Positions 2,284-32,207 of a stretch of 64,000 bases of DNA are shown piece after piece (position 1 is the first letter of the stretch; each line of letters begins with the position of its first letter). This DNA comes from Yuukianura sp. NJ FZ-2021. Lineage: Eukaryota. The translations under genes and the position numbers were made by a program. Location: NCBI GenBank assembly GCA_046563655.1, contig CM102287.1, positions 2,108,001-2,172,000 of the forward strand. Direction: 5' to 3'. The notes under the pieces were generated by a model. The model ran no database searches. It was given only the letters and a program-made list of their open reading frames with translations, and was not told the origin of the DNA.

Positions 2284-2380
2284 AGTAGATAGCAAGTTGG
2301 GACAACGGGCCCATTTATTTTTAGAACATCCACGGGGGCTAGTCGGCCGCAATATTGGGGAGGGAAAAAACTCACAATGA

Positions 2381-2485
2381 CAAAAAATGTCAACAAAAAA
2401 GTCGACAACAAAAACGTCGACAAAAAGATCGAGAACAAAAATGTCAACAAAAAATGTCGATAACAAAAAAGTCGACAACAAAAAA
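2381..2485. repeat. Subterminal ~14-15 bp tandem repeats (AAAAAAGTCGACAAC-like), mirrored at ~32006-32110
   Basis: About 7 degenerate copies of aaaaa(a/t/c)gtc(g/a)acaa seen directly. Confidence 0.75.
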
Positions 2486-2551
2486 CAAGTAGTGAAATTT
2501 TTGTGTAGAAAATTCGAACATCGACTCTAGTCTAGTGTCTAAGTGCTTGTA

Positions 2552-2863
2552 ACTACTTCTCTACGGCCGCTGGTTCGAATACCACACGGGTCAACGCTTG
2601 TGGTTAAGAAGTTACAAGTACTTAGATACAAGACTGGGGTCAATGTTATTATTTTTTTTATTTATTTTTAGTTAAGGATTGAGTTCTTGGAAAAATATCT
2701 TTTCTCAAGAAAAACGTTTTTTCTTGAAAAGTTCTCAAAATAACATTTCTTTAGAAAAAACGTTTTTGAAAAAATTTCAAAATAGCATTTCAAACGTTGT
2801 CCAAGTAGTACTTAAACAGCGAGTTTTGAGACTAGCAATCATCAGTTCGGAAACCAGTCTCAA
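2552..2863 (+). repeat. 312-bp direct repeat, copy 1 (copy 2 at 3708-4019), upstream of each arm paralogue
   Basis: actacttctctacggccgctggttcgaat...ccagtctcaa occurs twice with few differences. Confidence 0.9.
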
Positions 2864-2893
2864 ACTATAAGCATGCGGTGATTCAGGTCATAC

Positions 2894-3763
2894 ATGGAGG
2901 TTTCGGAACCGTTTATTGACATGGAAGATGTCATCGCAGTGAAGATTTCTGGACATTCGATTCTTCTAACAGCAGAGGATCTGCCAACCGTGGTGGAAAA
3001 GCTAGTAAAAGCATACATAGCCGCAGGGGAAATGATGAAGGATTTACCACACTTTGAAACAATCATGGCAACTAACCGCAAGAATGGATTCCTAAAGTTA
3101 TTTCGTCAGCAGTCACCAGCAGAGTTTCAAACACTCAAAGAAAAGCTGGAGCGACCGCTTCCTCCTATCCACTGCATCACAGGCAATGTGAATCGAGTGT
3201 TTCTCATACGTAGCGGTCGTCCACTTCCCATCGAAATCATGGACATTCCTCTTCTGGTGGAATCACTTCTAAAGTGTGGCTGCTTTCCGACCTCATATAC
3301 AGAAAAGTATCTGGATGAGCTCATTCATGAGTCAAAACGTGAATACCTGAGAAAGCTACGCGACAAAATTCTCAACACTCCCATCAACAGAATTAAAGAA
3401 ACAATTGGCAAGGCTGCCGGTTTAAAGACGAACAAGAAAATTCACCCATACAAAAAACCAAACGTGTTTCACCGATTTGCCTGTTATTTATCGCCAAAGT
3501 CTTTCATTTTAAATCCAGCCTACTCGAAGCATGTGCTGGACGTTACCAAACATCAACAAATTCAAATTAACAACCAAAAACGTACTCCAAACCATGACTT
3601 TAACGAGCACTTTAGACTGGTCCATCTTAACATGCATCGTCAATCGTCATACTCTGATGATACAGTTCTCAACATTATTTTTTATGGTGTTAAGCAAATT
3701 TCAGCTTACTACTTCTCTACGGCCGCTGGTTCGAATACTACACGGGTCAACGCTTGTGGTTAA
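2894..3763 (+). CDS. P arm paralogue 1, 289-aa hypothetical protein
   Basis: Intact ATG ORF; clear paralogue of 4077-4893; identical copy at 30728-31597 (-). Confidence 0.75.
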   Translation: MEVSEPFIDMEDVIAVKISGHSILLTAEDLPTVVEKLVKAYIAAGEMMKDLPHFETIMATNRKNGFLKLFRQQSPAEFQTLKEKLERPLPPIHCITGNVNRVFLIRSGRPLPIEIMDIPLLVESLLKCGCFPTSYTEKYLDELIHESKREYLRKLRDKILNTPINRIKETIGKAAGLKTNKKIHPYKKPNVFHRFACYLSPKSFILNPAYSKHVLDVTKHQQIQINNQKRTPNHDFNEHFRLVHLNMHRQSSYSDDTVLNIIFYGVKQISAYYFSTAAGSNTTRVNACG

Positions 3764-4076
3764 GAAGTTACAAGTACTTAGATACAAGACTGGGGTCAAT
3801 GTTATTATTTTTTATTTTTATAGTTTTAGTTAAGGATTGAGTTCTTGGGAAAATATCTTTTCTCAAGAAAAACGTTTTTTCTTGAAAAGTTCTCAAAATA
3901 ACATTTCTTTAGAAAAAAACGTTTGAAAAATTTCAAAATAGCATTTCAAACGTTGTCGAAGTAGTACTTAAACAGCGAGTTTTGAGACTAGCAATCGTCA
4001 GTTCTGAAACCAGTCTCAATCTGCAACCGTGGAAGGGTTTCGACCTTATATAGAAGTTTTGACGCCTTTTAGTGAC

Positions 4077-4893
4077 ATGGAGGATGTCATTGCAGTGAAG
4101 ATTGCTGAACACTCAATTCTGCTAGCAGCAGAGGAACTCCCGACCGTGGTCGAAAAGCTGGTTAAAGCATACATCGAAGCTGGGAGAATGATGAAGGATC
4201 TTCCACATTTTGAAAGAATCATGGCAAGGAACCGCAAGAATGGATTCCTGAAGTTATTCCGAGTTCTAGAAAGACCACCAGCATCGGAAATCCAAATAAT
4301 GAAAGAAAAGCTCGATACGCCACTTCTTCCAATCCACTGCATTAAAAACGAATCAGACCAAGTGTTTCTTATTAGAAGCGGTGGTCCTCTCACACTGAAC
4401 ATCAGTGATATTCCTCTTCTGGTGGAATCGCTTCTAAAGTGTGGTTGCTTTCCTACATTCTTATCCGGAAAGGAATCTGGACGAGCTTATTCATGAAACA
4501 AAGCGTGTTTTCCTCAATAAGCTGCGCAAGGAAGGCCTCAACACTTGTGCGAACAGAATTAAAAACAAGATTGGGAAAGTCGTAGGAATACAGCCAGACA
4601 AGAAAATTCATCCGTACAAAAGTGAAAAACGAAGTATTTTTCAGCGATTTAATTGCTGCTGTCCAACAGTTGATGATACTCTGAAGCCACGCTATCGGAT
4701 GCACATAACGGACGTTACCAAAGACCAACAAGAACGTATTAACAAATCAAGGATTGTTTCAGAAGGAGATTTTGGAGATGCTCAACTTGCCAACATCGAA
4801 AATTACCGATTAGCGCCATATTCCTCTCAAGCCGTCCACATGATTGTTCATCATAGTGAACGAGATCATTCTGCATATGACATTTTCTGTTAG
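4077..4893 (+). pseudogene. P arm paralogue 2, left copy with a 1-nt frameshift
   Basis: tcctacAttcttatcc versus tcctacttcttatcc in the intact right-arm copy; split into ORFs 4029-4496 and 4441-4893. Confidence 0.8.
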
Positions 4894-5093: not shown

Positions 5094-5513
5094 TGTTACA
5101 CATACCATACGCAAAGAAAAATTACTAAGCCTAAGTTACTTTCTTTTGTTCCTTGTTTTTCGACCTTCACTGAAATCCCTTGAACTTGGGAAAAACAACT
5201 CCCGATTTTTGTATTTTGAAAATAGTTCCCTTTCCCGATCTTGTTTTGTTATTTAGTAAGGTTAAGGTCACTCCATAAGGTCTAGGCTAAAAATTTCCTT
5301 TAAATACCGTAGTACATCACTGTAAGAGGCAGTTGAAATTCGGACTCTGTTTGGTTCGGATCCAACTAAAACTCCGGGGTAGCCAACTAACTAGGCACTC
5401 GTCGAGTTTACCTAACCTAACCTTCCTCTCCCAAAAAATAAGTTAAATAAAAATAATGCACAAGTATTTTTCGAAGGCCTTTATTTTACAAGTTCAAATA
5501 TGAACTTGTAACA
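5094..5513 (+). repeat. 5' LTR of element A (420 bp)
   Basis: Direct repeat of 25971-26389 with TG...CA ends and AATAAA. Confidence 0.96.
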
Positions 5514-5515
5514 TT

Positions 5516-5526
5516 TGGTGCCGAAA
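5516..5526 (+). promoter_or_regulatory. Primer-binding site of A, tRNA-Phe-like
   Basis: TGGTGCCGAAA 2 nt after the LTR, complementary to the tRNA-Phe 3' end. Confidence 0.75.
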
Positions 5527-5901
5527 GCGAACTCTCCTAATTCCAAAATAAGTTTTGGTACCTGGAGAGGCGAACCAGATTAGAATAATTTTCAATGCAG
5601 AACTAGAATTATTTTCATTCGTCAAATTGGTTTCTGTCTAAGCTCATTTTTCAAATGATTTCAGAATCTAAAAATAAAAACTGCCGTGGAAACTTGTCCA
5701 AAAAGAATCCTCATTTTACTCAGATTTGAAGAAAACCTCTCTCCAATTTTTCTACAATAAAGGTAAAAACAAAATCATGTGCACTTCATTTTCTTCTCTT
5801 ATAATTTTAGTCCTTCTTTTAATTTCGGTTTACCTATATTTTCAAAATTTCTTTAACAATCTAATTAAACCCCTAGATTTTTTCAATACCATGCATTTCT
5901 A

Positions 5902-6393
5902 ATGTTTCATTTAAATACTTATATACTAAACGAGATTTTTTCATACTTAACGTTTGAAGAAATTTTTTACTTACAACTTGCGTTTTCTTCTCAAAAACCT
6001 AAAACAAAATTTGAAAAATTACAACTTTTAAACTTCAGGGAAACCACGCACACAATTCTTCAAATCTTGAAGCTAAAAATAGCAATTCATGAAAATAATT
6101 TCATCCATGACGTAATTACTCTGAAATTAAAAATTTCTGGGACTAATGATTTTGAAGACAGTACATTTGTTACTATTAAGTCATACTTAAAAGAACTCCC
6201 GTCCAGCGTAACGTTGTTACCTACGGTAGATCTTTTACTACAATCTGAAATTTATACTTGCAATGTCCATTCCCATTTCATTCATGCCTTAACTACGGAG
6301 GACTTAACGTTATTACAAACTAAATTTATGATTTGGCCTTTTGTTTTTTTACCTCTTTCTAAACTTATTAATATAGAACGTAATAATTCATAA
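5902..6393 (+). CDS. Element A accessory ORF1, N-terminal F-box-like motif (163 aa)
   Basis: MFHLNTYILNEIFSYLTFEEIFYL fits the F-box pattern L(P)xEILxxIFSYLxxxDL. Confidence 0.7.
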   Translation: MFHLNTYILNEIFSYLTFEEIFYLQLAFSSQKPKTKFEKLQLLNFRETTHTILQILKLKIAIHENNFIHDVITLKLKISGTNDFEDSTFVTIKSYLKELPSSVTLLPTVDLLLQSEIYTCNVHSHFIHALTTEDLTLLQTKFMIWPFVFLPLSKLINIERNNS

Positions 6394-6422
6394 TCATACA
6401 AAGTTTCAAATTTTATAATGGA

Positions 6423-6878
6423 ATGGAAATTTTACATACAGATATTTTAGACGAAATTTTCACATATTTAACCTTTAACGATTTAACAAATTTTAAGATA
6501 GCAGTGGAAAACTCAGAATCTTCATTCTTAAAAACTTACACTCTCAATGTTTTTTACAACTCTCAAGAGCAATTGAAAAATCATTTGGCACAATTACCTC
6601 TTTCACTTTCTTATGTATTCATAAGAAATGATCAGTTTATTGGGTGTGTCAACCTCTTAACTAAAACGTTCTTGGAAACCTTGTTTTTAAAAGAATTGTT
6701 CAAATCCACACTTAGGTTATTACTTGAGACACCGATTTGTTACATTCAAATCGAAGCAACTAAATTCCGTGAATTAAACAAACACTGTCGGAATCTTCTC
6801 GCTAAAAAATTTTTTATCCGTTTTCACAAGGAACTTCCAAATGAACTTTCATACTACAAACTAGACCAAAAATTCTGA
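6423..6878 (+). CDS. Element A accessory ORF2, N-terminal F-box-like motif (151 aa)
   Basis: MEILHTDILDEIFTYLTFNDLTNF; C-terminal half aligns with ORF3 (TKTFLETLFLKELFKST / TKAFLLNLPLKHLFRST). Confidence 0.7.
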   Translation: MEILHTDILDEIFTYLTFNDLTNFKIAVENSESSFLKTYTLNVFYNSQEQLKNHLAQLPLSLSYVFIRNDQFIGCVNLLTKTFLETLFLKELFKSTLRLLLETPICYIQIEATKFRELNKHCRNLLAKKFFIRFHKELPNELSYYKLDQKF

Positions 6879-6882
6879 ACAA

Positions 6883-7359
6883 ATGAATGCGTTAGATTTC
6901 CCTTTAGTAGAACAAATTTTATCCTTTCTGACTTCACAGGATATTATTAATTTCTATTTGGCACTTCAGACTAATAAATTGGAATTCACCAATTTACAAA
7001 TCATCTTAGCTACTAAATATTTCGCAATTAAGGATCAGCTTTTAAAACACACTGCTAAAATAAGTCCAAATCTTCATTTCGTGTCTTACGAAACTTCTAC
7101 AACTAGTTTTTGGAAATTCAATTTTACAAAAGCGTTTCTGTTAAACCTGCCACTAAAACACTTATTTCGATCAACTGCACAAATTTTAACCAACACATCA
7201 ATTTGTGGGATTGCAATCACAGTAAACCATTTTAATTCCTTTTCAGAATTAGAAAAGAAATTAATTAAGGCGAAATTTTCAGTTAAATTTAACAAACATT
7301 CAGCATATTCGGAAAGCAACTATATTTTAGAAGAAAAAACAACGTTGTATATGTTTTAG
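6883..7359 (+). CDS. Element A accessory ORF3, N-terminal F-box-like motif (158 aa)
   Basis: MNALDFPLVEQILSFLTSQDIINFYLA; paralogue of ORF2. Confidence 0.68.
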   Translation: MNALDFPLVEQILSFLTSQDIINFYLALQTNKLEFTNLQIILATKYFAIKDQLLKHTAKISPNLHFVSYETSTTSFWKFNFTKAFLLNLPLKHLFRSTAQILTNTSICGIAITVNHFNSFSELEKKLIKAKFSVKFNKHSAYSESNYILEEKTTLYMF

Positions 7360-7415
7360 ATAAAATTTTTCCGGCCAATTGATTTAAATCCCCGTTTAAC
7401 ATTACCAATTCTTAA

Positions 7416-7550
7416 ATGGATGAAGAAAGAGCTGATAAACTAGAAATCTATTGGACAGCTAGTTTACTTTTTGAATTAGCTCTCGCTTTCACTATAATTA
7501 TTGGCCTAGGATTACTCATTATTTTTTATTTTTACAATTTCAACTACTAA
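7416..7550 (+). CDS. 44-aa single-pass transmembrane peptide
   Basis: Hand translation MDEERADKLEIYWTASLLFELALAFTIIIGLGLLIIFYFYNFNY*; fills the gap before gag. Confidence 0.5.
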   Translation: MDEERADKLEIYWTASLLFELALAFTIIIGLGLLIIFYFYNFNY

Positions 7551-7574
7551 ACATCAGTTAAAATCCAAATCAAA

Positions 7575-8741
7575 ATGAGTAAACCTACCAAAGTTGGAAT
7601 TGTTCCAACCAAGTTTAGTCCTAGGGACGATGCCTTCAAATGGTTACAACAATTCGAACTAGTTAGCATAGCTAACTCTTGGACAAATGAAATTAAAGTG
7701 GTCCAGCTTCCAAATTATCTAACTGCATCAGCTAGTTTATGGTACCTAAATTGGAAGAAAGAACGGACTGAAAAACATAAAGCTACTGCTAAGGAAGGTG
7801 ACACGGAGCCAGCAGTTACATGGGCTGAGCTAACTGAAGCGCTCCAGCGCGCTTTTCAAACTGTCGCTAACAAGGAAATAGCGGAACAGAAATTAAATGA
7901 CCGAAAACAACAATTAGGTGAAAGCTTCGAGGATTTTGTATATGCTTATATTGATTTGTGTAATGATTATGACCCTAATATGACTGAAGCCGTAAAATTA
8001 CGGAAGATTACAAGGTCTCTATTACCATACTATCTAGAAAAAATAAACCCTTTAAATTTAAAAACTATAGAAGAATTAATTAGTACAGGACGAAAAATCG
8101 CGGAAACTCAATTCATGTTAGAACAAAATGCTTCTGTGAATGCCGTTAGTGAGGTCAAACCAGAAATGGACAAACTCACAAAACTTTTTGAAAATCAGAC
8201 TGTTCTGATCACTAATATTCTGGAAAATCAGAAGGATTTATCTAAATTACATGAAGATAAAGAAAAGAGAAAAAATTCAAAAAATAATACAAATAAGCAA
8301 AATTTTAAATGTTATTCATGTGGATCGGATTCACATTTTGCTCAAAATTGTGACAAAAAATTCTGTCAAATTCATAATTCTACTACACATTCTACCTACG
8401 AATGTCGCTTAAAAAACGCAATTGGCCGGGGTCCACGGCCCAGGTATGCCATGGGTTCTCGGCCAGTTATATACCAACAACGCATGAATACCAATTACCG
8501 TCCTCGATTCCAATTTTCCCAACCTTTTGCCCTTCAAACTTACCAACCTCGGCCGAGGAATCCCTCCTACAACCCTCGTTCAACCCAAAATTTTCACAAT
8601 TACTATACCTCCCCATACCAATCCCAACAATTGAGCCAACCCTTTCAAAACAATCAAAATTCAACTTCCAATCCTACCCCAGTTCAGTATTACCAAAATC
8701 CACACCAACAGCAACCCACGTTTCCTCCCACGCTCAACTAA
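7575..8741 (+). CDS. gag: Element A Gag
   Basis: Capsid-like region (KWLQQFE...W...RKQQLGESFEDF), CYSCGSDSHFAQNC knuckle plus CQIHNSTTHSTYEC. Confidence 0.92.
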   Translation: MSKPTKVGIVPTKFSPRDDAFKWLQQFELVSIANSWTNEIKVVQLPNYLTASASLWYLNWKKERTEKHKATAKEGDTEPAVTWAELTEALQRAFQTVANKEIAEQKLNDRKQQLGESFEDFVYAYIDLCNDYDPNMTEAVKLRKITRSLLPYYLEKINPLNLKTIEELISTGRKIAETQFMLEQNASVNAVSEVKPEMDKLTKLFENQTVLITNILENQKDLSKLHEDKEKRKNSKNNTNKQNFKCYSCGSDSHFAQNCDKKFCQIHNSTTHSTYECRLKNAIGRGPRPRYAMGSRPVIYQQRMNTNYRPRFQFSQPFALQTYQPRPRNPSYNPRSTQNFHNYYTSPYQSQQLSQPFQNNQNSTSNPTPVQYYQNPHQQQPTFPPTLN

Positions 8742-11700
8742 AATCTTACGAATATTCTTTTATATTAGGCACCAACGGTGGCCTAATCAGAATTAACGGT
8801 CTAATTAATAACCTTCCAGCTCAAATTATAATTGATACTGGGAGTACAGTATCCTTAGTACACCCACGATTTATTCAAGACAAAAACTTACTTAAATTTA
8901 ATATGAACTTAGTAGGTATAGGTCCAGGGAAAGTTTCCGTTACTCACTGGGCAAGAATTCGAATTCAAATTAATAAAATGAGTATTTATTTTAACGTTTA
9001 CGTAGTACCGAGTTTAATGTTTGACTTACTGTTAGGGTTAGATTTTTGTAAGTTCCAAAAGATTTCTCTCAATGTTTCCGAAGAGAAAGTTTCCTGGCAA
9101 GGAATTGATTTAGAAATTGAACCAATAAGTTTAAATAACTTTTTACATAACGATGATAATTCAAAACAATTAAAACAACGAATATTGAATAAAAAGGTAT
9201 TATTATGTCAAATTAAAAATAGAAATCAAAATTTAATAATTCAAAGGAAGAATGAACCCATTCAGGCAGAAATGGAAGGGCACAAGCTGTCAGAACAAAA
9301 TAAACTTATTAATCAAGAAATAATAATTCAAAGGAAAAATGAACCCATTCAGGCAGAAATGGAAGGACACAAGCTGTCAGAAAATAATAAACTTATGAAT
9401 CGAAAAATAATAATTCAGAGGAAGAAAGAACCCATTCAGGCAGAAATGGAAGGACACAAGCTGTCAGAACAAAATAAACTTAAGAATGATCAACCCATTA
9501 CTTTGACAATGGAAGAACACACTGTGTTAAAAATAAACCAAGACATAAAAAATATGAAAAATAATAACGATTTTAATTTTAGGAACACAAGTAATGAATT
9601 AGATAACATTAAGTTACATAACGCGTTAGCATCAGAGCTCTCGTCTACACAACACCAGACACACAACCAGGATCCTTCTGTACATAATGTTAATAATTTC
9701 ATATTGCCGGCTAGGATAGTAAAATTAGTTAAAGTAAAGCTTAATGGCCACCTTAATGACTTGAATTATTTAGAAATTAGTGATGAATTAATTGAGTTAG
9801 GTATCTTAATGCCACCCATTTTGTTACGATCAATTTACTCGGATGAATTTTTGTTTCTTCCACTTATGAATATTCATGATTTCCCGATTACAATTTCAGC
9901 TAATACTAAAATTGCTAATATCAGTACTTTAGAAAATCTTCCAATTGAAGAAAACGTACTGAATATTGCTGAATGTCGTTCTGAAAATTCCAGTACACAA
10001 GTCGACAGTAATACATTCATTAATGATGAAACCCATGTTCAGACCATTTTAGCTAGAATTGCTTCGACAGCCTCATCCGAGGAAAAAACGTTGCTTGAAG
10101 AAATAATTCGAAAATATCAAGATGTTTTTGCTAGACCTGGAGAAATTGGTAAAATAAATTGCTACAAACATAAAATTACACTCATTCCAAATGCCTCTCC
10201 GGTTAAACGAGCTCCTTATAGGAAAGCTCCAGATCTTGAAAAATTTGAACGTGAAAAAATTCAGGAATTGTTAGAACAAGGAGTAATTAGACCATCATGC
10301 TCTCCTTGGGGAGCTGGGGTAGTTATAGTTAGGGATGGGCATAAGTCAGAACAAGAAAAAGAGCCACGATTTTGCATAGATTACCGTCCAGTGAATAAAG
10401 TTACAGTTAAAGATGCGTATCCATTACCAAACATTCAATCCATATTGGACTGGATCGCACCTAGAGCTAATAAAATATCAACCTTAGACGCACAAAAAGG
10501 GTACTGGGCAATATCAATGGATGAGGACAGCATACCTCTTACAGCTTTCATTACACAATCAGGCTTATTTGAATTTGTACGGCTTCCATTCGGTCTTTGT
10601 GGAGCGCCTGCGGCCTATTCCCGGGCACTTTCGATAATTTTGATGAATTACATTTGGACTAATTTAATTAACTATCTAGACGATATTATTTTTAGCAATT
10701 TAACAATTCAGGAACATGTAAAGGATTTAGAATTAGCATTTCAACGATTCAGAAAATATGGATTGAAAATAAATATTAAGAAAAGCCAATTTTTACGAGA
10801 AAAAATACGCATTTTAGGTTACATTGTTTCTAAAAATGGAATAGAAGTAGATCCTGAAAAAACAAAAGCAATTTCGGAGATTAAAACTCCATCTAATATA
10901 AAAGAAATCCAGCAGTTTCTTGGAGCTGTTTGTTTCTTTCGCCGTTTCATTTACCGTTATTCAGAACTTGCCAAACCGTTGACGATTTTGTTACATCAAG
11001 ATAAGAAATTTCATTGGGGTGAACAGCAAGAAAAATCTTTCCAACTTTTAAAAAATGCACTACTTACAGCCCCGGTATTAGCTCATTACGACCCTAATAA
11101 ACCAATCCATGTCGTTACGGATTCTAGTGGATACGGGTTAGGAGCGTCCTTACTGCAACCCGATGAACATGGGGTTGAAAGACCTGTTGCATTTTCTTCC
11201 CGTACTTTAAATAAAACTCAAATTAAATATTCTACCACAGATCGTGAATACTTAAGCATAATTCATGCATTACAGGTATTTCACCCTTATTTGGACTCTA
11301 AATTCTTTACAATTTTTACTGATCATCAACCCATTACTGGACTAAATTTTGCTAAAAATGAGTCTTCTTCCCGATTAGCCAGATATGCATTAATTTTGCA
11401 ACAATATGACTATAAACTTGTTTACCGTAAAGGAACGTTTAATAAATTAGCAGACTGTCTTTCACGTCTTCCCCTTCCTGACAAATTCGATGAAACAGAT
11501 ATAGAAGTACCAAGTTTTTTAATTTCTGAAGATCACTTACCCCAATTACAGTTAGCTGATTCCGATTGTATCCAAATTATAGAAAAAAATGTCTCAATCT
11601 GTATCAAAACCTAAATTTCAACTAAAAAATGGCATTCTGTACAATTGCAACTACGGATACCCACGTCTGGTGGTCCCTCGAGTACTCAGAAAAGAATTAC

Positions 11701-22029: not shown

Positions 22030-24198
22030 CAACGAATTTTTTTCCTTATTTTCACAAGATTTTCAAATTCTACATTCATTATATTACTAACAATTTTAGC
22101 ACTCCTTTTCTGTTTAGCTCAAACCCAGGATTCTCCTATTGATCAACTGTTTACAAAATTGGACACTAAAACCGAAATTCTGTATTACTGTAGGGGATAT
22201 ACGGCTGGAATTCCTTGGAATATTCCTCCACCAATCAAATGCCCACTAGTTTCGACGGAAAAACCTTCTAAACTAGTAGACATAACTCTCTGGTGGACTG
22301 ACATTAGTTTAAATGCTATTCAGGGATTCGAATGTTACAAAATAGTAGAAGAGGTTAAAACCTACCGCCATTTTTTTGGGAAAAGAGATAAAGAATATCG
22401 GAAATACAAATTACCTGTGTCAGAGAAAGAATGTCGCTTAATGATAAGAACTCACGCAAGCCCCCTGACATCACAAACCAAATTAAATCGCATTTCTGAT
22501 GGTTACTTTGGTACTGCTGACATATTATCTCTCGACTACTATTGGCTCGGCACTGATTACAAAACAGTTACGAATTATTTCATGGTCGCTCTGACACTTT
22601 CAATATCCAATACAGATGATACCATAATTACTACTGCGAAAACTGTAGGACAATGTAAATATCAGACAGGTACATGTGATACCGAAAATGGAATTCTTTG
22701 TTGGACTCCAAAGGACGTGAAGATATGTAGGATGAAAGAAGGTGATTCTGCTACATGTTTATTTACTGAAGATCGCCTGTCATGTCCAACATTAGAAATT
22801 GCCATTACTAAAGTCATTCCTGTTAAAAAATGTGGATTGATTTTCGGTACATCTGCTCAAGGTATTATTTTCACCGAGAGTAATAATTCTTTAAATTTTG
22901 CTATTTCTTTAACGAATCTCACGCGGAATGTAATCAATAATCCCACACGTTATAAACGTTCTCATGACGATGATTCTTCTGAAGAAGATGAAGGTTCCGC
23001 GGAGGAAATTGAAACACAAAATGGTGAAACTCTCATACCTAAATTATCGGAACTATTAATACCAGCACCAGAAAAACCCGAAACTCCAACATTGGTAACT
23101 ACGGGAGAACTCAATAGCAGATTACTTTACTTATATCAAATTGTTTCAAGTTCTTACCATTTTGGTATTCAAACTGTTCATCGCGACACGTGCAAAGCCC
23201 ATCAAGCACATTTAGAACTTCTTAGGGTACTAGCAGCTACGGGACAACCTAGTGTACTGGTACGCACGTTACTAAAAAATCCAGCATTACGAGCTAAAAC
23301 AAATGGAGACATCCTTTCTGTTTATAAATGTGAAGAAGTTGACACTTACATGCTACTTCCTCAAACTGGTTGCTATCTGGAGTGGCCAATTGAATTTTAT
23401 GTAGGCGTGGACCGAATGCAAGGGTACTTAACTGGTATCAATCATGAAATTGTAAAAGACCCAACTCATACTTCTTGTCCATCTCCTAATTTTTATTTTG
23501 AATATGGAACTATGACTATTCACTTGACTAACAGAACAGTTATTGAAAATTTATCAGTTTTACCTTCTAACTATGAAGACACAAAATTGGAAACAATGCC
23601 AGAATTGTCCTTCTCCGCCCCTGGAGTCTACTCATTGGACGAAGTGGGTGGAGCAGAGACAATTGCGGCTATCTTAAAGGAACTTTCTAAACAAAATAAA
23701 ATTGACAATATCTTACAAAGCACACATTCCAACTTAGGACCTATTGAATCAAAAACTATTACTCTGTTAAGAGAATACGTATTAACACCTTTCCAAAACG
23801 TTTTAGCCACTATTTGCATGTCCGGACTAGCCATTTTTATTGTTGTTATAACACTCAAGTATGCGTATAAAAACAGAGCGTATTTTCAACAGATCTTTCA
23901 TAGAATTAAATTACTTTCGCATACTAAGAAAAAAAGACAAGTTCGTAATAAGCCTGTTAAAATCCCTAGCAGCGATTCCGAAACTGAGAATGTTCCTTTA
24001 CAAGTTCAAGCTCCAGTAATGAACACTCGACAGGTTATGAGAAGAACTAAATCACGGAAAAATCGATCTCGGGTTGTCAACAGTAATCCAAAAATATTTA
24101 AACCCCAATATTCCTGTACCACTGTAAATGAGGTTCGTAAACCTAATAACTTAACACCCAAATATCCATTTGAAGAATTAAAAAGAATTCAAAATTAA
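22030..24198 (+). CDS. env: Element A Env, class III viral fusion glycoprotein-like (gB / rhabdovirus G / chuvirus G type)
   Basis: Frame is open from 22030 with a signal-like FIILLTILALLFCLAQ but no ATG; Cys-rich ectodomain, candidate fusion loops RHFFG and YYWLG, furin site RYKR, gB-like RTLLKNPALRAKTNGDILSVYKC, C-terminal TM and basic tail. Confidence 0.8.
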   Translation, partial: QRIFFLIFTRFSNSTFIILLTILALLFCLAQTQDSPIDQLFTKLDTKTEILYYCRGYTAGIPWNIPPPIKCPLVSTEKPSKLVDITLWWTDISLNAIQGFECYKIVEEVKTYRHFFGKRDKEYRKYKLPVSEKECRLMIRTHASPLTSQTKLNRISDGYFGTADILSLDYYWLGTDYKTVTNYFMVALTLSISNTDDTIITTAKTVGQCKYQTGTCDTENGILCWTPKDVKICRMKEGDSATCLFTEDRLSCPTLEIAITKVIPVKKCGLIFGTSAQGIIFTESNNSLNFAISLTNLTRNVINNPTRYKRSHDDDSSEEDEGSAEEIETQNGETLIPKLSELLIPAPEKPETPTLVTTGELNSRLLYLYQIVSSSYHFGIQTVHRDTCKAHQAHLELLRVLAATGQPSVLVRTLLKNPALRAKTNGDILSVYKCEEVDTYMLLPQTGCYLEWPIEFYVGVDRMQGYLTGINHEIVKDPTHTSCPSPNFYFEYGTMTIHLTNRTVIENLSVLPSNYEDTKLETMPELSFSAPGVYSLDEVGGAETIAAILKELSKQNKIDNILQSTHSNLGPIESKTITLLREYVLTPFQNVLATICMSGLAIFIVVITLKYAYKNRAYFQQIFHRIKLLSHTKKKRQVRNKPVKIPSSDSETENVPLQVQAPVMNTRQVMRRTKSRKNRSRVVNSNPKIFKPQYSCTTVNEVRKPNNLTPKYPFEELKRIQN

Positions 24199-24285
24199 CA
24201 CCAAACCTATAAAACTAAAATCACACTATACATCTATACTTTACTATACTATACATCTATTCCTATTTTTGTGTCCAACTTTCTA

Positions 24286-25473
24286 ATGTCTATATTAACA
24301 AACACTTTACATGCTCCAAACTACTCTACAAATTCTAGTAAAATGGGACGGAGAAACAAACGGCAAGGAGCGGGAGTAAAACAACGGAAATTGGAAAAAC
24401 GAAAACAACAAACTCAATTAAGACGGGAAATTAGATTCGAAAATATTCAAAAAATGAGCTCAGAACAACCACTCTCAGGAGTTTTAAATACCCAATGGGT
24501 TTTAACGGATACTAATAAACGACAACGACTAAACAAATTAACGACAGGAAAAATGAAAATGTTAAAAAATAGTACTGTAGAGTCTAATATAAATAATTAC
24601 CATAAGGCTTATATTAAGGACGAGGAATGTGTTTTTACCAACCATAGTGAGATACGTAAGGATCACGAATTTGTTAGAAAACACTATTTTGAAGAGAAAA
24701 AAGGAAAACTTGTATATAGGAAATATCAAATTATTCCATTTGATGAGATAATTAAGGCCCCTTCCCTTTCCAAGAATGTCAACCCACAAGTTACTCCCAT
24801 CATCCCTCGTCCCCTCCAAAATACACAACAAGCCGCCGACTTTCTCCAAATTTCATTGCAAGAATTCTTGGACCACCCTTCGAATAGTTCAACACAGGAA
24901 ATGAACCCACAAATCCGAACTTTGACGTTACATGCAGAACAAACTCAGCATCATACAACAACACAAACACCCAATAACTCAATCACCCAGGATGTTACAT
25001 CAATTCTCAAAGAAATGATGTCTTCACAACCGGCACTCTCTCCAATACCCTCTGCTGATTCTTCAGATTCATCTTCTTCTGATTCATCATCTTCATCAGA
25101 TTCGACCGATTCTTCATCAGATGATTCAGACTCATCCTCATCTTCCTCATCAAGCGATTCAGACTCCGAAGATGGTGACCCTTCAACATACTCCGATCGT
25201 CATTTTGAAATTGACGGTATTGTGGACGAATCAGAATATGTAGACTTAGGTTTAGATATGTTAACGGAGGAGGAACAACAACTTTATAGGCAACCAAATT
25301 CAACAAATCTCGAAAACTGTTGCGAAATTATTTTAAGCGATGATGAAGACAATATGGACTCTACCCAAAATTCGTTGGACCAAAAACATAAACAAGATGC
25401 CGCAACTTATAAAAAATTATCAACACAAGAACGAATCCAATTTGTTCACGAATTTGAAGGAGAATCTAAATAA
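24286..25473 (+). CDS. Element A post-env ORF, basic N-terminus and Ser/Asp-rich acidic C-terminus
   Basis: ~395-aa ORF; MGRRNKRQGAGVKQRKLEKRK followed later by a poly-S/D tract. Confidence 0.6.
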   Translation: MSILTNTLHAPNYSTNSSKMGRRNKRQGAGVKQRKLEKRKQQTQLRREIRFENIQKMSSEQPLSGVLNTQWVLTDTNKRQRLNKLTTGKMKMLKNSTVESNINNYHKAYIKDEECVFTNHSEIRKDHEFVRKHYFEEKKGKLVYRKYQIIPFDEIIKAPSLSKNVNPQVTPIIPRPLQNTQQAADFLQISLQEFLDHPSNSSTQEMNPQIRTLTLHAEQTQHHTTTQTPNNSITQDVTSILKEMMSSQPALSPIPSADSSDSSSSDSSSSSDSTDSSSDDSDSSSSSSSSDSDSEDGDPSTYSDRHFEIDGIVDESEYVDLGLDMLTEEEQQLYRQPNSTNLENCCEIILSDDEDNMDSTQNSLDQKHKQDAATYKKLSTQERIQFVHEFEGESK

Positions 25474-25529
25474 TGTAAAATAATATTACTAATCACTTTA
25501 TACTAAATCAACACTACTAAAACTAAAAT

Positions 25530-25541
25530 CCTTAAAAAAAA

Positions 25542-25582
<41 letters not shown>

Positions 25583-25810
25583 TAAAATAAAAAAAAAAAA
25601 TTAAAAAAAAAATAAAATAAATAAATAAATAAAAAAAAATAATAATAATAAAAATAAAAATAAAATACACGAAGACATAAAAATAAAAAAAAAATACAAA
25701 TAAAGATAAAAAAAAAAACAATTAACTAAAATTAATACTGGTAATAATAATATTCCTAATGTTAAAAATAATACTCACAATAATAATCATAATAATAATC
25801 ATAATAATCA
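25530..25810. repeat. A-rich and (AAT)n low-complexity tract in the 3' UTR of A
   Basis: Seen directly. Confidence 0.85.
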
Positions 25811-25970
25811 TCATACTTTTCTTTCAATCTGTTTTTGTTTCTTACACCTAGCTATCATAATCGTTACATTCTAACTCAAATGTCCAGTTACCTATTACAC
25901 AATTATCTTTATGTGGTTACTTCTAAATACACAATTTTTGGGGACAAAAATTTTTTTATGAGGGGAGACA

Positions 25971-26389
25971 TGTTACACATACCATACGCAAAGAAAAATT
26001 ACTAAGCCTAAGTTACTTTCTTTTGTTCCTTGTTTTTCGACCTTCACTGAAATCCCTTGAACTTGGGTAAAACAACTCCCGATTTTTGTATTTTGAAAAT
26101 AGTTCTCTTTTCCGATCTTGTTTTGTTATTTAGTAAGGTTAAGGTCACTCCATAAGGTCTAGGCTAAGAATTTCCTTTAAATACCGTAGTACATCACTGT
26201 AAGAGGCAGTTGAAATTCGGACTCTGTTTGGTTCGGATCCAACTAAAACTCCGGGGTAGCCAACTAACTAGGCACTCGTTGAGTTTACCTAACCTAACCT
26301 TCCTCTCCCAAAAGTAAGTTAAATAAAAATAATGCACAAGTATTTTTCGAAGGCCTTTATTTTACAAGTTCAAATATGAACTTGTAACA
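25971..26389 (+). repeat. 3' LTR of element A
   Basis: Direct repeat of 5094-5513; PPT GAGGGGAGA at 25960-25968. Confidence 0.96.
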
Positions 26390-27015
26390 GCCGGAGCCTT
26401 CCACTCTTCCAGAAAGGTGTCATCTACACTAGACTCGTTCTCATTTTCATCTTCTTCTTCACCATCACTCACACTGGGTGTTTCTTCTTCTTCGCTAGTG
26501 CTTTTATCCTCCACAATACGTCTTTTCTTTCTAGGGTTCACTCCTCGAGACGGCTGAAATAGGTATTGTCTTGATTCATGTAACTCATGTGTTGGCAATT
26601 TACGGGATTTCATAAACTGAATCATCCCCGAAATCAACGAACCGTTTAGCCTGCGTCTACCATCACTAATAACACGAATTCCGTCTTCAAAGTCACAGCG
26701 CTGCATTTGTTCACAGCCAAAAACAACAGTTTCCCCTTGTAAAATGGCTCCATTATTCAGAAAAAGCTGAAGAAGGTTTTGTCCTTGTTTTGAAAAGTTT
26801 GAAAAATTGAACTGGTTTTGCTCCAGAATCGGTTTTAGCAACTCCGTGGGCTTGTGGTCTTCCACGACTTTTGCCTCAACTTCCAATGTCTTTATGTCTT
26901 TTGAATCACCTGACTTTTGCTGTTCCACGTTTCGTCGATTCTGGAATTGACGAAGTAGGGCGTGGCATATGGTTTTGAAGTTCAACTGATGTCTTTCCGT
27001 TGTCGAACTGGTCAT
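26390..27015 (-). CDS. P hypothetical protein downstream of the ATPase; its last codons (SWE*) are displaced to ~5076-5088 by element A
   Basis: Right-arm copy ends KAPASWE*; left copy reads into the A LTR after KAPA. True start is uncertain and may lie in the overlapping ATPase ORF tail. Confidence 0.55.
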
Positions 27016-28030
27016 TCAGTCTAGTTACTTCTCGTTTCATCAAATTTCTTTTTGTTTCACTCGCATATGTTTCAAAAGGAATTGTTTCCGTTTTCTGTTC
27101 CATTGGCGGCATCCACACATATTTAACCTGTGACGTATTCGAAGTCAATTTGTCATATGCTGCTTCCTCCATCACCCTGTAAGGGCATGGTTTGTCTTTA
27201 ACATAAACGTTACACTTTTCAGGAAAAATGTTGTCTCTAATGCGAAACAAATCATTCTGACGCTGTGTTAAATCTATAAAGAGGTATCCATAGTCTTTGG
27301 ACATGCAATTTTTGTACGCATTCTCCATCGTTGTATTTTTCTTTCCGCCATTCATTTGACGCCCCAGGCAAGCGACAAACTGAGAGTCTCGAGGGTTCTT
27401 CATTAGAACCAAGTAATGGCAGTTGGCAGTAATTTCCTTCAAGTTCTTGTGAAAAAAGTTTTGCACAAGAATAATGAGTGATACATTGCGGTGGTGAGAT
27501 GTTCTAGTGAACGCAGTGCCAACTTCGGATTTCTTTCCAACTTCATGCATTAAATCATCCAGCACTACAAGGGACGGTTTATCAGATCCGTCATGCCATT
27601 TATCCAGTAGCCCTTGGTGAAACTTTATTTGAGGCATGGCACATTTTAGTTGTGTAAACAACTCTGGCTGTAACTCTGTATAGCAGTATGTAACACGATT
27701 GAACTTTTCCCCAGTAGACGTCAGAATGATCTCGTTCCGACGAAGGATGATTTCCTTAACCAGAGTACTTTTTCCGCTTTGAGTCATCCCGCTGATGCAC
27801 ATCGTAAAAGGAGCACGTAAATGAGCATCAAATGTTACCCCGGATAATTCGTCCATAAACAGCGATCCTTTGCCATGCTCTTCCGATACATATTCGGCAG
27901 GAGTCAAGTGATAAGCAATGCTGTCGTTAACAGGAATGGGGACTTGCATAGTCTTGCATGTCAATTTGTGACGTTTAAAGTTATCCGACCGTCCAAACTT
28001 TTTTGAACAACCTGAACAACTGTATTCCAT
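26906..28030 (-). CDS. Polinton/Maverick-type A32/FtsK-HerA packaging ATPase with N-terminal C2H2-like zinc finger
   Basis: PFTMCISGMTQSGKST (Walker A), LVVLDDLM (Walker B), FTRTSHHRNVSLIILVQN, LMKNPRD, YGYLFID; N-terminal YSCSGCSKKFGRSDNFKRHKLTC. Confidence 0.88.
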   Translation of the reverse strand: MEYSCSGCSKKFGRSDNFKRHKLTCKTMQVPIPVNDSIAYHLTPAEYVSEEHGKGSLFMDELSGVTFDAHLRAPFTMCISGMTQSGKSTLVKEIILRRNEIILTSTGEKFNRVTYCYTELQPELFTQLKCAMPQIKFHQGLLDKWHDGSDKPSLVVLDDLMHEVGKKSEVGTAFTRTSHHRNVSLIILVQNFFHKNLKEITANCHYLVLMKNPRDSQFVACLGRQMNGGKKNTTMENAYKNCMSKDYGYLFIDLTQRQNDLFRIRDNIFPEKCNVYVKDKPCPYRVMEEAAYDKLTSNTSQVKYVWMPPMEQKTETIPFETYASETKRNLMKREVTRLNDQFDNGKTSVELQNHMPRPTSSIPESTKRGTAKVR

Positions 28031-28177: not shown

Positions 28178-28516
28178 TTATACTCCTCCTCATCTTGCTT
28201 TTCAGACAGCCGAAAAGCGTGCTTCTACTCCTCTTCCTCCTCCTCTCCTCCTCCTCAAATAGCTCAAGAGCATGCCTATACTCCTCCTCCTCCTCAGATA
28301 GCTCAAGAGCATGCCTATACTCCTCCTCCTCAGATATCTCAAGAGCATGCCTATACTCCTCCTCCTCCCCTCCTCAGATACCTGAAGAGCATGCCTATAC
28401 TCCTCCTCCTCCCCTCCTCAGATATCTCAAGAGCTTACCTATACTCCCCCTCCTCCTCCTCAGATATCTCAAGAGCATGCCTATGCTTACCTATACTCCC
28501 CCTCCTCCTCCTCAGT
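28178..28516. repeat. Tandem ~33-42 bp repeat (ctcctcctcctcagatatctcaagagcatgcctata) in the P core
   Basis: About 7 variable copies seen directly. Confidence 0.9.
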
Positions 28517-28605: not shown

Positions 28606-28798
28606 TTCAATCAACTACACTGGACTTTTCTAAAACTGCTTTGTAATTTCAATAAACTACACTGCACTTTTCTAAAACTGCTTTGTAATTTCAATAAACT
28701 ACGCTGGACTTTACTGAAACTGTTTTTTAATTTCAATAAACTACGCTGGACTTTACTGAAACTGTTTTTTAATTTCAACCAATTACACTAGACTTTTC
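28606..28798. repeat. Tandem ~42 bp repeat (actacactggacttttctaaaactgctttgtaatttcaataa) in the P core
   Basis: About 4.5 copies seen directly. Confidence 0.85.
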
Positions 28799-28948
28799 TC
28801 AATTGCCGGGGTATTTCCACCCTAATACGTTGCACTTGCGTAATGCTCTGCTTTCTACTTCAGCTACAACGTGCTAACATAAGTTAGCGCGTCCAAACCA
28901 AATTTGACTTAGGGTGTAATTGGTTGAAATTAAAAAACAGTTTCAGTA

Positions 28949-29416
28949 GAGTTGCTAAAACCGATTCTGGAGCAAAACCAGTTCAATTTTTCAAACTTTT
29001 CAAAACAAGGACAAAACCTTCTTCAGCTTTTTCTGAATAATGGAGCCATTTTACAAGGGGAAACTGTTGTTTTTGGCTGTGAACAAATGCAGCGCTGTGA
29101 CTTTGAAGACGGAATTCGTGTTATTAGTGATGGTAGACGCAGGCTAAACGGTTCGTTGATTTCGGGGATGATTCAGTTTATGAAATCCCGTAAATTGCCA
29201 ACACATGAGTTACATGAATCAAGACAATACCTATTTCAGCCGTCTCGAGGAGTGAACCCTAGAAAGAAAAGACGTATTGTGGAGGATAAAAGCACTAGCG
29301 AAGAAGAAGAAACACCCAGTGTGAGTGATGGTGAAGAAGAAGATGAAAATGAGAACGAGTCTAGTGTAGATGACACCTTTCTGGAAGAGTGGAAGGCTCC
29401 GGCCAGTTGGGAATAA
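28949..29416 (+). pseudogene. 5'-truncated inverted copy of the 26390-27015 ORF
   Basis: Starts mid-gene at ELLKPILEQ, exactly at the arm boundary. Confidence 0.8.
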
Positions 29417-29598
29417 ATTTCAACAACAAAAAATTACAATTTTATACAACATTGATTTATTATTTGGTGTTTAAATTTTGTTTAAATTTACAATATGAAT
29501 CCAATAAATGAATTTTCAATGTGGCAAATAATTTAAAACCCTGGATTTTATTCAAGTGTAAAAGTGTAATACTAAACCATTAAATAACAGAAATTCAG

Positions 29599-30414
29599 CT
29601 AACAGAAAATGTCATATGCAGAATGATCTCGTTCACTATGATGAACAATCATGTGGACGGCTTGAGAGGAATATGGCGCTAATCGGTAATTTTCGATGTT
29701 GGCAAGTTGAGCATCTCCAAAATCTCCTTCTGAAACAATCCTTGATTTGTTAATACGTTCTTGTTGGTCTTTGGTAACGTCCGTTATGTGCATCCGATAG
29801 CGTGGCTTCAGAGTATCATCAACTGTTGGACAGCAGCAATTAAATCGCTGAAAAATACTTCGTTTTTCACTTTTGTACGGATGAATTTTCTTGTCTGGCT
29901 GTATTCCTACGACTTTCCCAATCTTGTTTTTAATTCTGTTCGCACAAGTGTTGAGGCCTTCCTTGCGCAGCTTATTGAGGAAAACACGCTTTGTTTCATG
30001 AATAAGCTCGTCCAGATTCCTTTCCGGATAAGAAGTAGGAAAGCAACCACACTTTAGAAGCGATTCCACCAGAAGAGGAATATCACTGATGTTCAGTGTG
30101 AGAGGACCACCGCTTCTAATAAGAAACACTTGGTCTGATTCGTTTTTAATGCAGTGGATTGGAAGAAGTGGCGTATCGAGCTTTTCTTTCATTATTTGGA
30201 TTTCCGATGCTGGTGGTCTTTCTAGAACTCGGAATAACTTCAGGAATCCATTCTTGCGGTTCCTTGCCATGATTCTTTCAAAATGTGGAAGATCCTTCAT
30301 CATTCTCCCAGCTTCGATGTATGCTTTAACCAGCTTTTCGACCACGGTCGGGAGTTCCTCTGCTGCTAGCAGAATTGAGTGTTCAGCAATCTTCACTGCA
30401 ATGACATCCTCCAT
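29599..30414 (-). CDS. P arm paralogue 2, intact right-arm copy (271 aa from the ATG)
   Basis: Uninterrupted ORF; MEDVIAVKIAEHSILL... aligns with paralogue 1. Confidence 0.75.
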   Translation of the reverse strand: MEDVIAVKIAEHSILLAAEELPTVVEKLVKAYIEAGRMMKDLPHFERIMARNRKNGFLKLFRVLERPPASEIQIMKEKLDTPLLPIHCIKNESDQVFLIRSGGPLTLNISDIPLLVESLLKCGCFPTSYPERNLDELIHETKRVFLNKLRKEGLNTCANRIKNKIGKVVGIQPDKKIHPYKSEKRSIFQRFNCCCPTVDDTLKPRYRMHITDVTKDQQERINKSRIVSEGDFGDAQLANIENYRLAPYSSQAVHMIVHHSERDHSAYDIFC

Positions 30415-30727
30415 GTCACTAAAAGGCGTCAAAACTTCTATATAAGGTCGAAACCCTTCCACGGTTGCAGATTGAGACTGGTTTCAGAACTGACGATTGC
30501 TAGTCTCAAAACTCGCTGTTTAAGTACTACTTCGACAACGTTTGAAATGCTATTTTGAAATTTTTCAAACGTTTTTTTCTAAAGAAATGTTATTTTGAGA
30601 ACTTTTCAAGAAAAAACGTTTTTCTTGAGAAAAGATATTTTCCCAAGAACTCAATCCTTAACTAAAACTATAAAAATAAAAAATAATAACATTGACCCCA
30701 GTCTTGTATCTAAGTACTTGTAACTTC

Positions 30728-31597
30728 TTAACCACAAGCGTTGACCCGTGTAGTATTCGAACCAGCGGCCGTAGAGAAGTAGTAAGCTGAAATTTGCTTA
30801 ACACCATAAAAAATAATGTTGAGAACTGTATCATCAGAGTATGACGATTGACGATGCATGTTAAGATGGACCAGTCTAAAGTGCTCGTTAAAGTCATGGT
30901 TTGGAGTACGTTTTTGGTTGTTAATTTGAATTTGTTGATGTTTGGTAACGTCCAGCACATGCTTCGAGTAGGCTGGATTTAAAATGAAAGACTTTGGCGA
31001 TAAATAACAGGCAAATCGGTGAAACACGTTTGGTTTTTTGTATGGGTGAATTTTCTTGTTCGTCTTTAAACCGGCAGCCTTGCCAATTGTTTCTTTAATT
31101 CTGTTGATGGGAGTGTTGAGAATTTTGTCGCGTAGCTTTCTCAGGTATTCACGTTTTGACTCATGAATGAGCTCATCCAGATACTTTTCTGTATATGAGG
31201 TCGGAAAGCAGCCACACTTTAGAAGTGATTCCACCAGAAGAGGAATGTCCATGATTTCGATGGGAAGTGGACGACCGCTACGTATGAGAAACACTCGATT
31301 CACATTGCCTGTGATGCAGTGGATAGGAGGAAGCGGTCGCTCCAGCTTTTCTTTGAGTGTTTGAAACTCTGCTGGTGACTGCTGACGAAATAACTTTAGG
31401 AATCCATTCTTGCGGTTAGTTGCCATGATTGTTTCAAAGTGTGGTAAATCCTTCATCATTTCCCCTGCGGCTATGTATGCTTTTACTAGCTTTTCCACCA
31501 CGGTTGGCAGATCCTCTGCTGTTAGAAGAATCGAATGTCCAGAAATCTTCACTGCGATGACATCTTCCATGTCAATAAACGGTTCCGAAACCTCCAT
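30728..31597 (-). CDS. P arm paralogue 1, right-arm copy (289 aa)
   Basis: Translation identical to 2894-3763. Confidence 0.75.
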   Translation of the reverse strand: MEVSEPFIDMEDVIAVKISGHSILLTAEDLPTVVEKLVKAYIAAGEMMKDLPHFETIMATNRKNGFLKLFRQQSPAEFQTLKEKLERPLPPIHCITGNVNRVFLIRSGRPLPIEIMDIPLLVESLLKCGCFPTSYTEKYLDELIHESKREYLRKLRDKILNTPINRIKETIGKAAGLKTNKKIHPYKKPNVFHRFACYLSPKSFILNPAYSKHVLDVTKHQQIQINNQKRTPNHDFNEHFRLVHLNMHRQSSYSDDTVLNIIFYGVKQISAYYFSTAAGSNTTRVNACG

Positions 31598-32207
31598 GTA
31601 TGACCTGAATCACCGCATGCTTATAGTTTGAGACTGGTTTCCGAACTGATGATTGCTAGTCTCAAAACTCGCTGTTTAAGTACTACTTGGACAACGTTTG
31701 AAATGCTATTTTGAAATTTTTTCAAAAACGTTTTTTCTAAAGAAATGTTATTTTGAGAACTTTTCAAGAAAAAACGTTTTTCTTGAGAAAAGATATTTTT
31801 CCAAGAACTCAATCCTTAACTAAAAATAAATAAAAAAATAATAACATTGACCCCAGTCTTGTATCTAAGTACTTGTAACTTCTTAACCACAAGCGTTGAC
31901 CCGTGTGGTATTCGAACCAGCGGCCGTAGAGAAGTAGTTACAAGCACTTAGACACTAGACTAGAGTCGAATGTTCGAATTTTCTACACAAAAATTTCACT
32001 ACTTGTTTTTTGTTGTCGACTTTTTTGTTATCGACATTTTTTGTTGACATTTTTGTTCTCGATCTTTTTGTCGACGTTTTTGTTGTCGACTTTTTTGTTG
32101 ACATTTTTTGTCATTGTGAGTTTTTTCCCTCCCCAATATTGCGGCCGACTAGCCCCCGTGGATGTTCTAAAAATAAATGGGCCCGTTGTCCCACCTTACA
32201 TTCTACT

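Follow-up and report, generated by a model that had tools for sequence, protein, structure and literature searches.

The 64,000-nucleotide stretch analysed here (the window; positions 2,108,001 to 2,172,000 of contig CM102287.1 of Yuukianura sp. NJ FZ-2021) contains at 2284-32207 a largely palindromic transposable element that encodes a packaging ATPase. Judged by the features that we tested, it is a non-autonomous Polinton derivative and behaves like a helper-dependent satellite: its AG...CT ends and target-site duplication (TSD) match those of an autonomous family in the same genome, and several independent insertions are present. We consider it probable that it belongs, as a single insertion, to an old lineage of palindromic satellites that depend on this co-resident Polinton family, termed H below. 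The components of this proposal differ in strength: mobilization in trans of a satellite with a working ATPase is very likely, its replication by a fold-back route is somewhat better than an even proposition, and encapsidation of its DNA falls a little short of one.

Self-BLAST of the window aligned 2283-5093 with 32208-29399 at 99.75% identity and 26390-26844 with 29403-28949 at 100%. The left arm consists of 2284-5093 plus 26390-26844, and the two arms, of 3,260 and 3,259 bp, make up 75.6% of a net element of 8,623 bp (29,924 - 21,296 - 5) around a middle of 2,104 bp (26845-28948). The termini read AGTAG...CTACT, with 4 of the 14 outermost bases differing between the two ends. In all five fetched sister copies of the host Gypsy retrotransposon (from 25 matches) the flanks of the insertion are contiguous with a single 5-bp overlap, and an open gag frame of 528-551 aa runs across the site. 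The first-pass annotation of this DNA had described the same net length, arms of about 3.26 kb (about 76%) around a 2.1-kb core, AG...CT termini, and an exact 5-bp TSD within a Gypsy gag whose frame is restored on removal, and self-BLAST, arithmetic, the end sequences and the uninterrupted, open sister copies bear out each of these. Its description of a core with only a packaging ATPase holds for the ATPase, which matches a Pfam family of such enzymes, but the core also contains the 5' half of a second gene (X), and each arm carries two further genes (A1 and A2) that it had not described. The features of the element, including one later insertion, are:

2279..2283, no strand: left TSD copy, GCCTC, in the host Gypsy gag
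2284..2324, + strand: left terminal 41-bp cassette, AGTAG followed by a variable middle and TATTTTTAG, a form common to helpers and all satellites
2284..3707, + strand: outer 1.42 kb of the left arm, acquired recently from the helper family's right end (94-97% identical at the DNA level)
2882..3763, + strand: left copy of arm gene A1, matching the terminal 283-aa gene of the helper at 94% identity, with an altered C-terminus common to both arms
4008..4893, + strand: left copy of arm gene A2, a satellite-specific paralogue 59% identical to the helper gene, with a frameshift near 4457
5094..26389, + strand: later insertion and not the element's own, a Gypsy long terminal repeat (LTR) retrotransposon of 21,296 bp with a fusion-glycoprotein gene, TSD GCCGG
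26390..26844, + strand: left-arm inner segment of 455 bp, with the 3' half of gene X
26390..27015, - strand: gene X, homologue of a 217-aa helper open reading frame (ORF), split from the ATPase by a frameshift near 26,965
26906..28030, - strand: C2H2 finger and A32/FtsK-type packaging ATPase with intact Walker A, Walker B and downstream motifs
28228..28507, no strand: 36-44-bp tandem array upstream of the ATPase, related to sequence in the centre of a contig C9 palindrome that carries polymerase genes only
28606..28799, + strand: 42-bp tandem array of 4.6 copies, the left half of the family's centre module
28800..28913, no strand: central loop, the true symmetry axis
28914..28952, - strand: 39-bp inverted remnant of the 42-bp array, joined by a deletion to the middle of X at the point where the right-hand ATPase has been lost
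28949..32207, - strand: right arm, uninterrupted, with a 5'-truncated X (28949-29416), intact A2 (29599-30483), A1 (30728-31609) and the terminal cassette (32167-32207)
32208..32212, no strand: right TSD copy, GCCTC

The ATPase matches Pfam Pox_A32 (E 6e-6, above the cut-off) and has a weak N-terminal C2H2 finger; in phylogenetic trees, a check that the first-pass annotation had proposed, it groups with the H ATPases with support of 98/96-100/100. Gene X starts in the core and continues into the left arm, and in sister copies of the element ATPase and X form a single open frame of 540-611 aa. The X of this element is about 24% identical to helper X (24-34% for satellite X overall). A1 and A2 are paralogous and both read inward in each arm; A2 at high identity was found only in small elements. 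Within the element, tblastn with the helper polymerase ORFs gave no match, the helper integrase likewise found no match, the sole rve domain hit lies in the nested Gypsy, which interrupts the left arm only, and the helper genes for the double-jelly-roll (DJR) capsid, penton and protease found no counterparts.

To place the element we searched the genome (98.7 Mb in 22 contigs, numbered C1 onward, the window lying on C5) with core, end and ATPase and fetched 93 genomic stretches. These contain at least 14 long-armed relatives in two families, A and B, and A, B and H have the same end cassette. Family B comprises the studied element, at least four close relatives and fragments, and all of its copies are without polymerase, integrase and capsid genes. 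The ten elements of family A are 5-7 kb net, with arms of 1.3-2.4 kb and a 2.35-kb core; in this core the ATPase gene converges with a 461-aa ORF that joins X to a small protein, whose end carries what we take to be an adenain-type cleavage motif. One satellite of family A that has gained a helper right end on a single arm lies inside a helper Polinton capsid gene (C1:4618381-4626591, TSD CATAT). The H elements are Polintons of 14-17 kb with terminal inverted repeats (TIRs) of 80-100 bp, and encode an rve integrase (Pfam E 4e-10), a DJR-like capsid (Atlas 0.98), an ATPase and separate X and small-protein genes, alongside ORFs that by motifs and gene order we presume to be polymerase-, protease-, penton- and pX-like. 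AGTAG ends and 5-bp TSDs were found in each of the seven bounded H elements examined, which measure 9.6-17.1 kb and include a partly deleted one; a TSD of at least 5 bp flanks 12 of the 13 satellites checked. Among the full-length ones of 109 ATPase matches, identity is 91-100% in B, 77-78% in A, 71-73% in H and at most 52% thereafter, making H the nearest autonomous family among them; the H Polintons, with their shared ends and 5-bp TSDs, are the likely helpers. The first-pass annotation had suggested looking for other copies with different TSDs and for an autonomous element with the same ends, and both are present, as separate satellite insertions and as H respectively; its proposal of a satellite mobilized in trans gains from the helper-type Polintons, the many copies with TSDs of their own and a constrained ATPase. 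At 20 loci with more distant ATPases (40-52%) no long-armed ATPase mini-element lay within about 4 kb, and two of these distant Polinton families form giant palindromes. A further family (C11:372201, C8:6610601, C3:3580301) combines an H-like polymerase with a distant ATPase (46-49%) and two A-type genes, and within the 9 kb fetched has no integrase or capsid match.

The satellites are not young offshoots of H. The ATPase of family B is 72% (71-73%) identical to that of H with saturated silent divergence (dS), the H ATPases form a clade of their own (support 100/100) apart from A and B, and the dS between A and B exceeds 2. The ratio of replacement to silent divergence (dN/dS) was computed for full-length open copies (ATPase, 36 of 58 matches; X, 8 of 13; family-A fusion, 8 of 14; A2, 8 of 14), the pairs being non-independent. 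Among B copies it is 0.066 (19 silent and 5 replacement differences, p 1e-9) and 0.081 (45/17) for the ATPase, 0.18-0.51 for X and 0.12-0.29 for A2; for the helper ATPase it is 0.01-0.05, against 0.07-0.08 in the satellite. By these sequence comparisons the satellite is an independent lineage with its own genes under apparent purifying selection.

The sister copies also clarify the history of the palindrome. Two inverted ATPase genes occur at C4:8.28 Mb, C4:8.68 Mb, C10:0.55 Mb and C1:4.52 Mb, and these four double-ATPase loci centre on opposed 42-bp arrays or adjoining repeats; whole-length palindromy, near-perfect, is present in the family B sisters. Since the sisters carry two inverted ATPases around the same centre, the studied element is a formerly complete palindrome that has lost about 2 kb of its right half, including the right-hand ATPase. 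The first-pass annotation had placed the centre in mid-core and regarded the 2.1-kb core as unique, and both points require revision: the axis lies at about 28,800-28,913, and the core is the surviving half of a duplicated region. Other palindromes were also seen in the genome. One, at C4:5640198-5646245, is a perfect 6.0-kb palindrome with H-type ends, the 42-bp centre and one 256-aa ORF per arm, without an ATPase; another, at C9:995001-1016514, is a giant palindrome of a different Polinton family, the centre of which has no match to that of the studied element.

The arms record both capture of helper DNA and copying from one arm to the other. Their outer 1,424 bp are 94-97% identical to H right ends and, by this measure, are the only recent helper DNA in the element, about 1.4 kb on each arm. 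In two family-A elements a helper right end is found on only one arm, which suggests the step expected before copying to both arms as in the studied element. Leaving aside the terminal 14 bp, the two arms align over 3,252 bp with three one-base indels and not a single substitution. The nested LTR pairs, although younger, have mismatches at 6/420 and 25/1113 positions (Fisher p 2e-6 against the arms); as LTR pairs can differ from the start, this comparison by itself is inconclusive. At C1:4.52 Mb the left ATPase is interrupted by a Pao element, of whose LTR 427 bp recur in mirror image at the same site on the right-hand side, and at C10:443439-469620 arms of 11.5 kb, which contain the greater part of an unrelated Polinton inserted in an H-type fragment, are mirrored about the same 42-bp centre. 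The unmirrored middle of this last locus contains an inhibitor-of-apoptosis gene (BIR and RING domains).

These observations bear most directly on the strongest competing explanation, namely that the elements are ordinary long-TIR non-autonomous transposons whose palindromes and equal arms arose in the chromosome, by fold-back repair at the 42-bp arrays or by gene conversion, with an ATPase that aids intracellular transposition and no particles. The greater likeness of the arms than of the younger nested LTR pairs, the mirroring of a Pao LTR and of a whole unrelated Polinton after their insertion, and the size of the mirrored composites (17-30 kb, equal to or larger than the helper genome) all agree with it. 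We nevertheless regard it as unlikely, in that every palindrome lies within one clean 5-bp TSD and hence was inserted as a finished unit, and the end cassettes are particular to each copy, with little or no difference between its two ends. In addition, polymerase-less Polintons with retrotransposon cargo are described as still mobile in the available text of 10.1101/2025.02.07.637071.

A second alternative is a multipartite Polinton-like virus, in which the ATPase elements would form one segment and polymerase, capsid and integrase would lie on other small elements with matching ends. Such a segment might be seen at C9:1272341-1285124, where two polymerase genes form a 12.8-kb palindrome whose ends are of H type and whose centre is related (5-bp TSD, 85-89% DNA identity to a helper subfamily, centre repeats shared with window 28180-28514), and capsid-only mini-elements with TIRs of 1.5-1.6 kb also exist. 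However, the capsid matches (97 scored out of 122 candidates) fall into two classes, one of 92-100% identity that lies wholly inside H elements and one of 50% or less; no match shows a divergence like that of the satellite ATPase. Moreover, three capsid-only mini-elements have other ends and no DNA match to the arms, and the two whose TSDs were read have 6 bp. Nor was any H-ended element with only a capsid, integrase or protease found among the loci fetched in the end search, an incomplete census in which one H-ended locus carries only a penton and a pX fragment. We therefore consider this alternative improbable.

It is likewise improbable that ATPase-X serves to interfere with the helper, poisoning or diverting its packaging and so protecting host or satellite, rather than as a motor for the satellite's own DNA. 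In keeping with such a role the satellites retain exactly the ATPase, X and, in family A, a core-type protein, with X only 24-34% identical to that of the helper, and one family-A composite sits in a helper capsid gene (TSD CATAT). Against it, the catalytic motifs are fully conserved and the constraint is near that of the helper ATPase, as fits a working motor, while a single insertion in a helper is anecdotal.

The view that the element is a recent defective-interfering deletion product of a local helper, with a passive ATPase, draws on the near-identity of the outer 1.42 kb of the arms to helper ends and has very little probability. The ATPase at 72% with saturated dS, X at about 24%, A2 at 59% and the purifying selection among satellite copies refute it for the sequenced helpers, and only an unsampled near-identical parent could rescue it. 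A recent snap-back genome of a helper, which should be near-identical and unconstrained, was rejected on the same ATPase values and the dN/dS of 0.07-0.08. Hence the first-pass suggestion of a snap-back or defective-interfering genome survives as to architecture, because the sister copies are near-perfect palindromes, and fails as to recent descent from a helper by deletion.

Finally, although the arms are near-identical and none of the listed contig pieces from sequencing runs spans the stretch, an assembly fold-back, which the first-pass annotation had raised, can be dismissed on account of the TSD on both sides, the confinement of the 21-kb insertion and a frameshift to one arm, the differing end cassettes, the one-sided deletion and the many independent palindromic insertions with their own TSDs. 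Contigs from the four DNA runs compared (two studies; one sample may be the assembly's own source) cover all 30 bins of the window, and one has a strand-switch joint at 28825-28908; none of the listed contig pieces from these runs bridges the deletion junction, and no RNA run was among those listed.

Several points weigh against the satellite proposal: 1) It draws throughout on DNA sequence. 2) The studied copy is itself damaged, with one ATPase lost and a frameshift between ATPase and X. 3) The mirrored retrotransposon and Polinton insertions agree equally with intrachromosomal copying and with fold-back replication. 4) The union of families A and B in a single clade has support of 61/85 and is neither shown nor rejected. 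5) Among recent family A copies the ATPase has a dN/dS of 0-0.97 on 4-13 differences, indicating weak or no significant constraint, and the X fusion has 0.30-0.84; several of these recent pairs are not significant, with too few differences to show much. 6) The selection seen between copies could in part predate the loss of autonomy, given an unsampled autonomous ancestor with the same gene order. 7) The polymerase, protease, penton and pX labels of H received no support from Pfam, PHROGs, NCBIfam or PDB.

Taking the satellite proposal as a working model, the protein-primed polymerase of the helper would copy the satellite by strand displacement, starting at either end. The displaced strand of the palindrome would fold on itself, at once restoring a duplex origin, and copying around the fold would regenerate the palindrome and keep its arms equal. 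The helper integrase would then insert the satellite, and the satellite ATPase, with X, would favour the loading of satellite DNA into helper capsids, much as phage satellites employ packaging proteins of their own. We infer the strand-displacement and fold-back steps by analogy with adenoviruses, which replicate by protein-primed strand displacement. Opposed short repeats acting as seeds of fold-back have precedents in Tetrahymena rDNA and Streptomyces linear plasmids; a literature search on such seeds returned no direct paper. End-motif priming is discussed in the available part of PMC8097293. The available text of PMC4028283 counts Polinton ATPases among those that package the DNA of double-jelly-roll viruses, so that loading of satellite DNA into helper capsids would be the simplest explanation of the conserved ATPase. 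More generally, we tentatively suggest, at rather less than even confidence, that animal polintoviruses have packaging satellites, a eukaryotic parallel to phage-inducible islands: fold-back palindromes with their own ATPase-X motor for helper capsids, in which capture of helper ends would track the origin and the 42-bp centre would make the captured arms palindromic.

Non-autonomous Polintons as such are already known. With autonomous Polintons/Mavericks (polintoviruses, adintoviruses) the element shares AG...CT ends, a short TSD, an A32-type ATPase and genes homologous to those of H, but it is without polymerase, integrase, capsid, penton and protease and is 76% self-complementary, compared with the 80-100-bp TIRs of H. 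The phage satellites P4 and the phage-inducible chromosomal islands (PICIs) are helper-dependent, integrate and keep a packaging component of their own, as the studied element appears to do; unlike them it is eukaryotic, presumably a protein-primed linear replicon with only putative capsid use, and has neither an integrase nor a replicase of its own. The TSD of vertebrate Mavericks is 6 bp in the available text of PMC8097293, as against 5 bp here. In PMC4028283, as far as its available text goes, loss of the capsid in nine Polintons was accompanied by loss of protease and ATPase, contrary to the retention of the ATPase in our element, and the Tlr elements of Tetrahymena are Polinton relatives with an FtsK-like ATPase and no protein-primed polymerase (pPolB), like the studied element, yet encode an integrase, helicase, major capsid and penton, none of which it has. 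Lepidopteran Polintons, in the accessible portion of 10.1101/2025.02.07.637071, have 2-kb gene-bearing TIRs, and polB-less derivatives carrying cargo stay mobile. The duplication of genes in long TIRs and the mobile non-autonomous forms with retrotransposon cargo are thus alike, but those derivatives, on that account, are close to complete elements, whereas the present lineage is old and separate, keeps an ATPase and accessory genes and is almost wholly palindromic. The snap-back defective viral genomes described in the available text of PMC13506859 share whole-length palindromy and helper dependence, but are transient by-products of a parental virus, while the studied element is heritable, integrated and long-lived, with coding sequences apparently under selection. 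Searches of a literature collection without subscription journals or Repbase reports listed no publication that, judged by its title and the first lines of its abstract, deals with palindromic ATPase-bearing satellites.

Pfam, PHROGs, NCBIfam and PDB sequence searches supplied no name for X or the A proteins. A profile search with X of the 90% protein set found none, and an Atlas search returned nothing at 0.9; a HMMER search of representatives recovered about 10 unnamed X-domain relatives. A structure model of X (predicted local distance difference test score, pLDDT, 69) gave no Foldseek match at E 0.001 among viral structures, and its best structural score in the model comparison, VIA with Z 5.5, reflects generic helices; we therefore leave its fold unassigned. 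The model of protein A (pLDDT 38) was too poor for use. A search with the ATPase-X fusion protein against viral contigs yielded no locus, and two of five metagenome loci contain ATPase-X fusions 49% and 44-47% identical. One of these contigs (3,868 bp) has a zinc finger-ATPase-X fusion followed by a convergent o138/A-family ORF (35% to helper o138), the layout of family B. Both contigs are too short to show element ends or autonomy, and the absence of an upstream polymerase from them is not diagnostic, because an integrase-bearing contig likewise has none.

In H-ended elements, helpers and satellites alike, the terminal 41 bp are highly variable between AGTAG and TATTTTTAG, seemingly as shuffled short blocks, and the cassette is usually identical at both ends of any one element; this variability possibly reflects turnover of origins in a helper-satellite race. 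Elements of 3-4 kb at C1:3953977, C2:9069638, C4:48301, C7:276853 and C8:71946 have Polinton-type unequal ends with a filling of 55-bp tandem repeats, and nearly all of their target sites are GAAGG/CCTTC. Within the window, the nested Gypsy has three short paralogous ORFs upstream of gag (5869-7359; F-box-like starts by eye, no Pfam match) and an envelope gene at 22030-24198 of the Monjiviricetes/rhabdovirus fusion type (Pfam E 3e-12), and its 420-bp LTR has no close genomic copy elsewhere, the next best being 83%. It contains in turn a second LTR element (11844-20277, TSD TAAT) with a gag and a 944-aa low-complexity ORF, in which no reverse-transcriptase ORF was seen; the LTR pair of this inner element is more divergent (25/1113) than that of the older element around it (6/420). 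A run of more LTR elements, two or three Bel/Pao and one Gypsy by Pfam, occupies 33921-55137, and tandem and inverted repeats lie at 40550-41038 and 60621-61464.

This satellite bears on whether animal Polintons form particles and on how they replicate. A lineage that has no polymerase, integrase or capsid yet keeps a constrained packaging motor is hard to explain without packaging, and so offers an indirect test of particle formation. Likewise, the palindromes, mirrored insertions and one-armed capture intermediates may be read as a record of strand-displacement and fold-back steps that had previously been proposed mainly by analogy with adenoviruses, and the satellite family marks out gene X as a probable motor partner. 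If these elements are indeed packaging satellites, their long maintenance with a motor under selection would argue indirectly for particle formation by animal Polintons.

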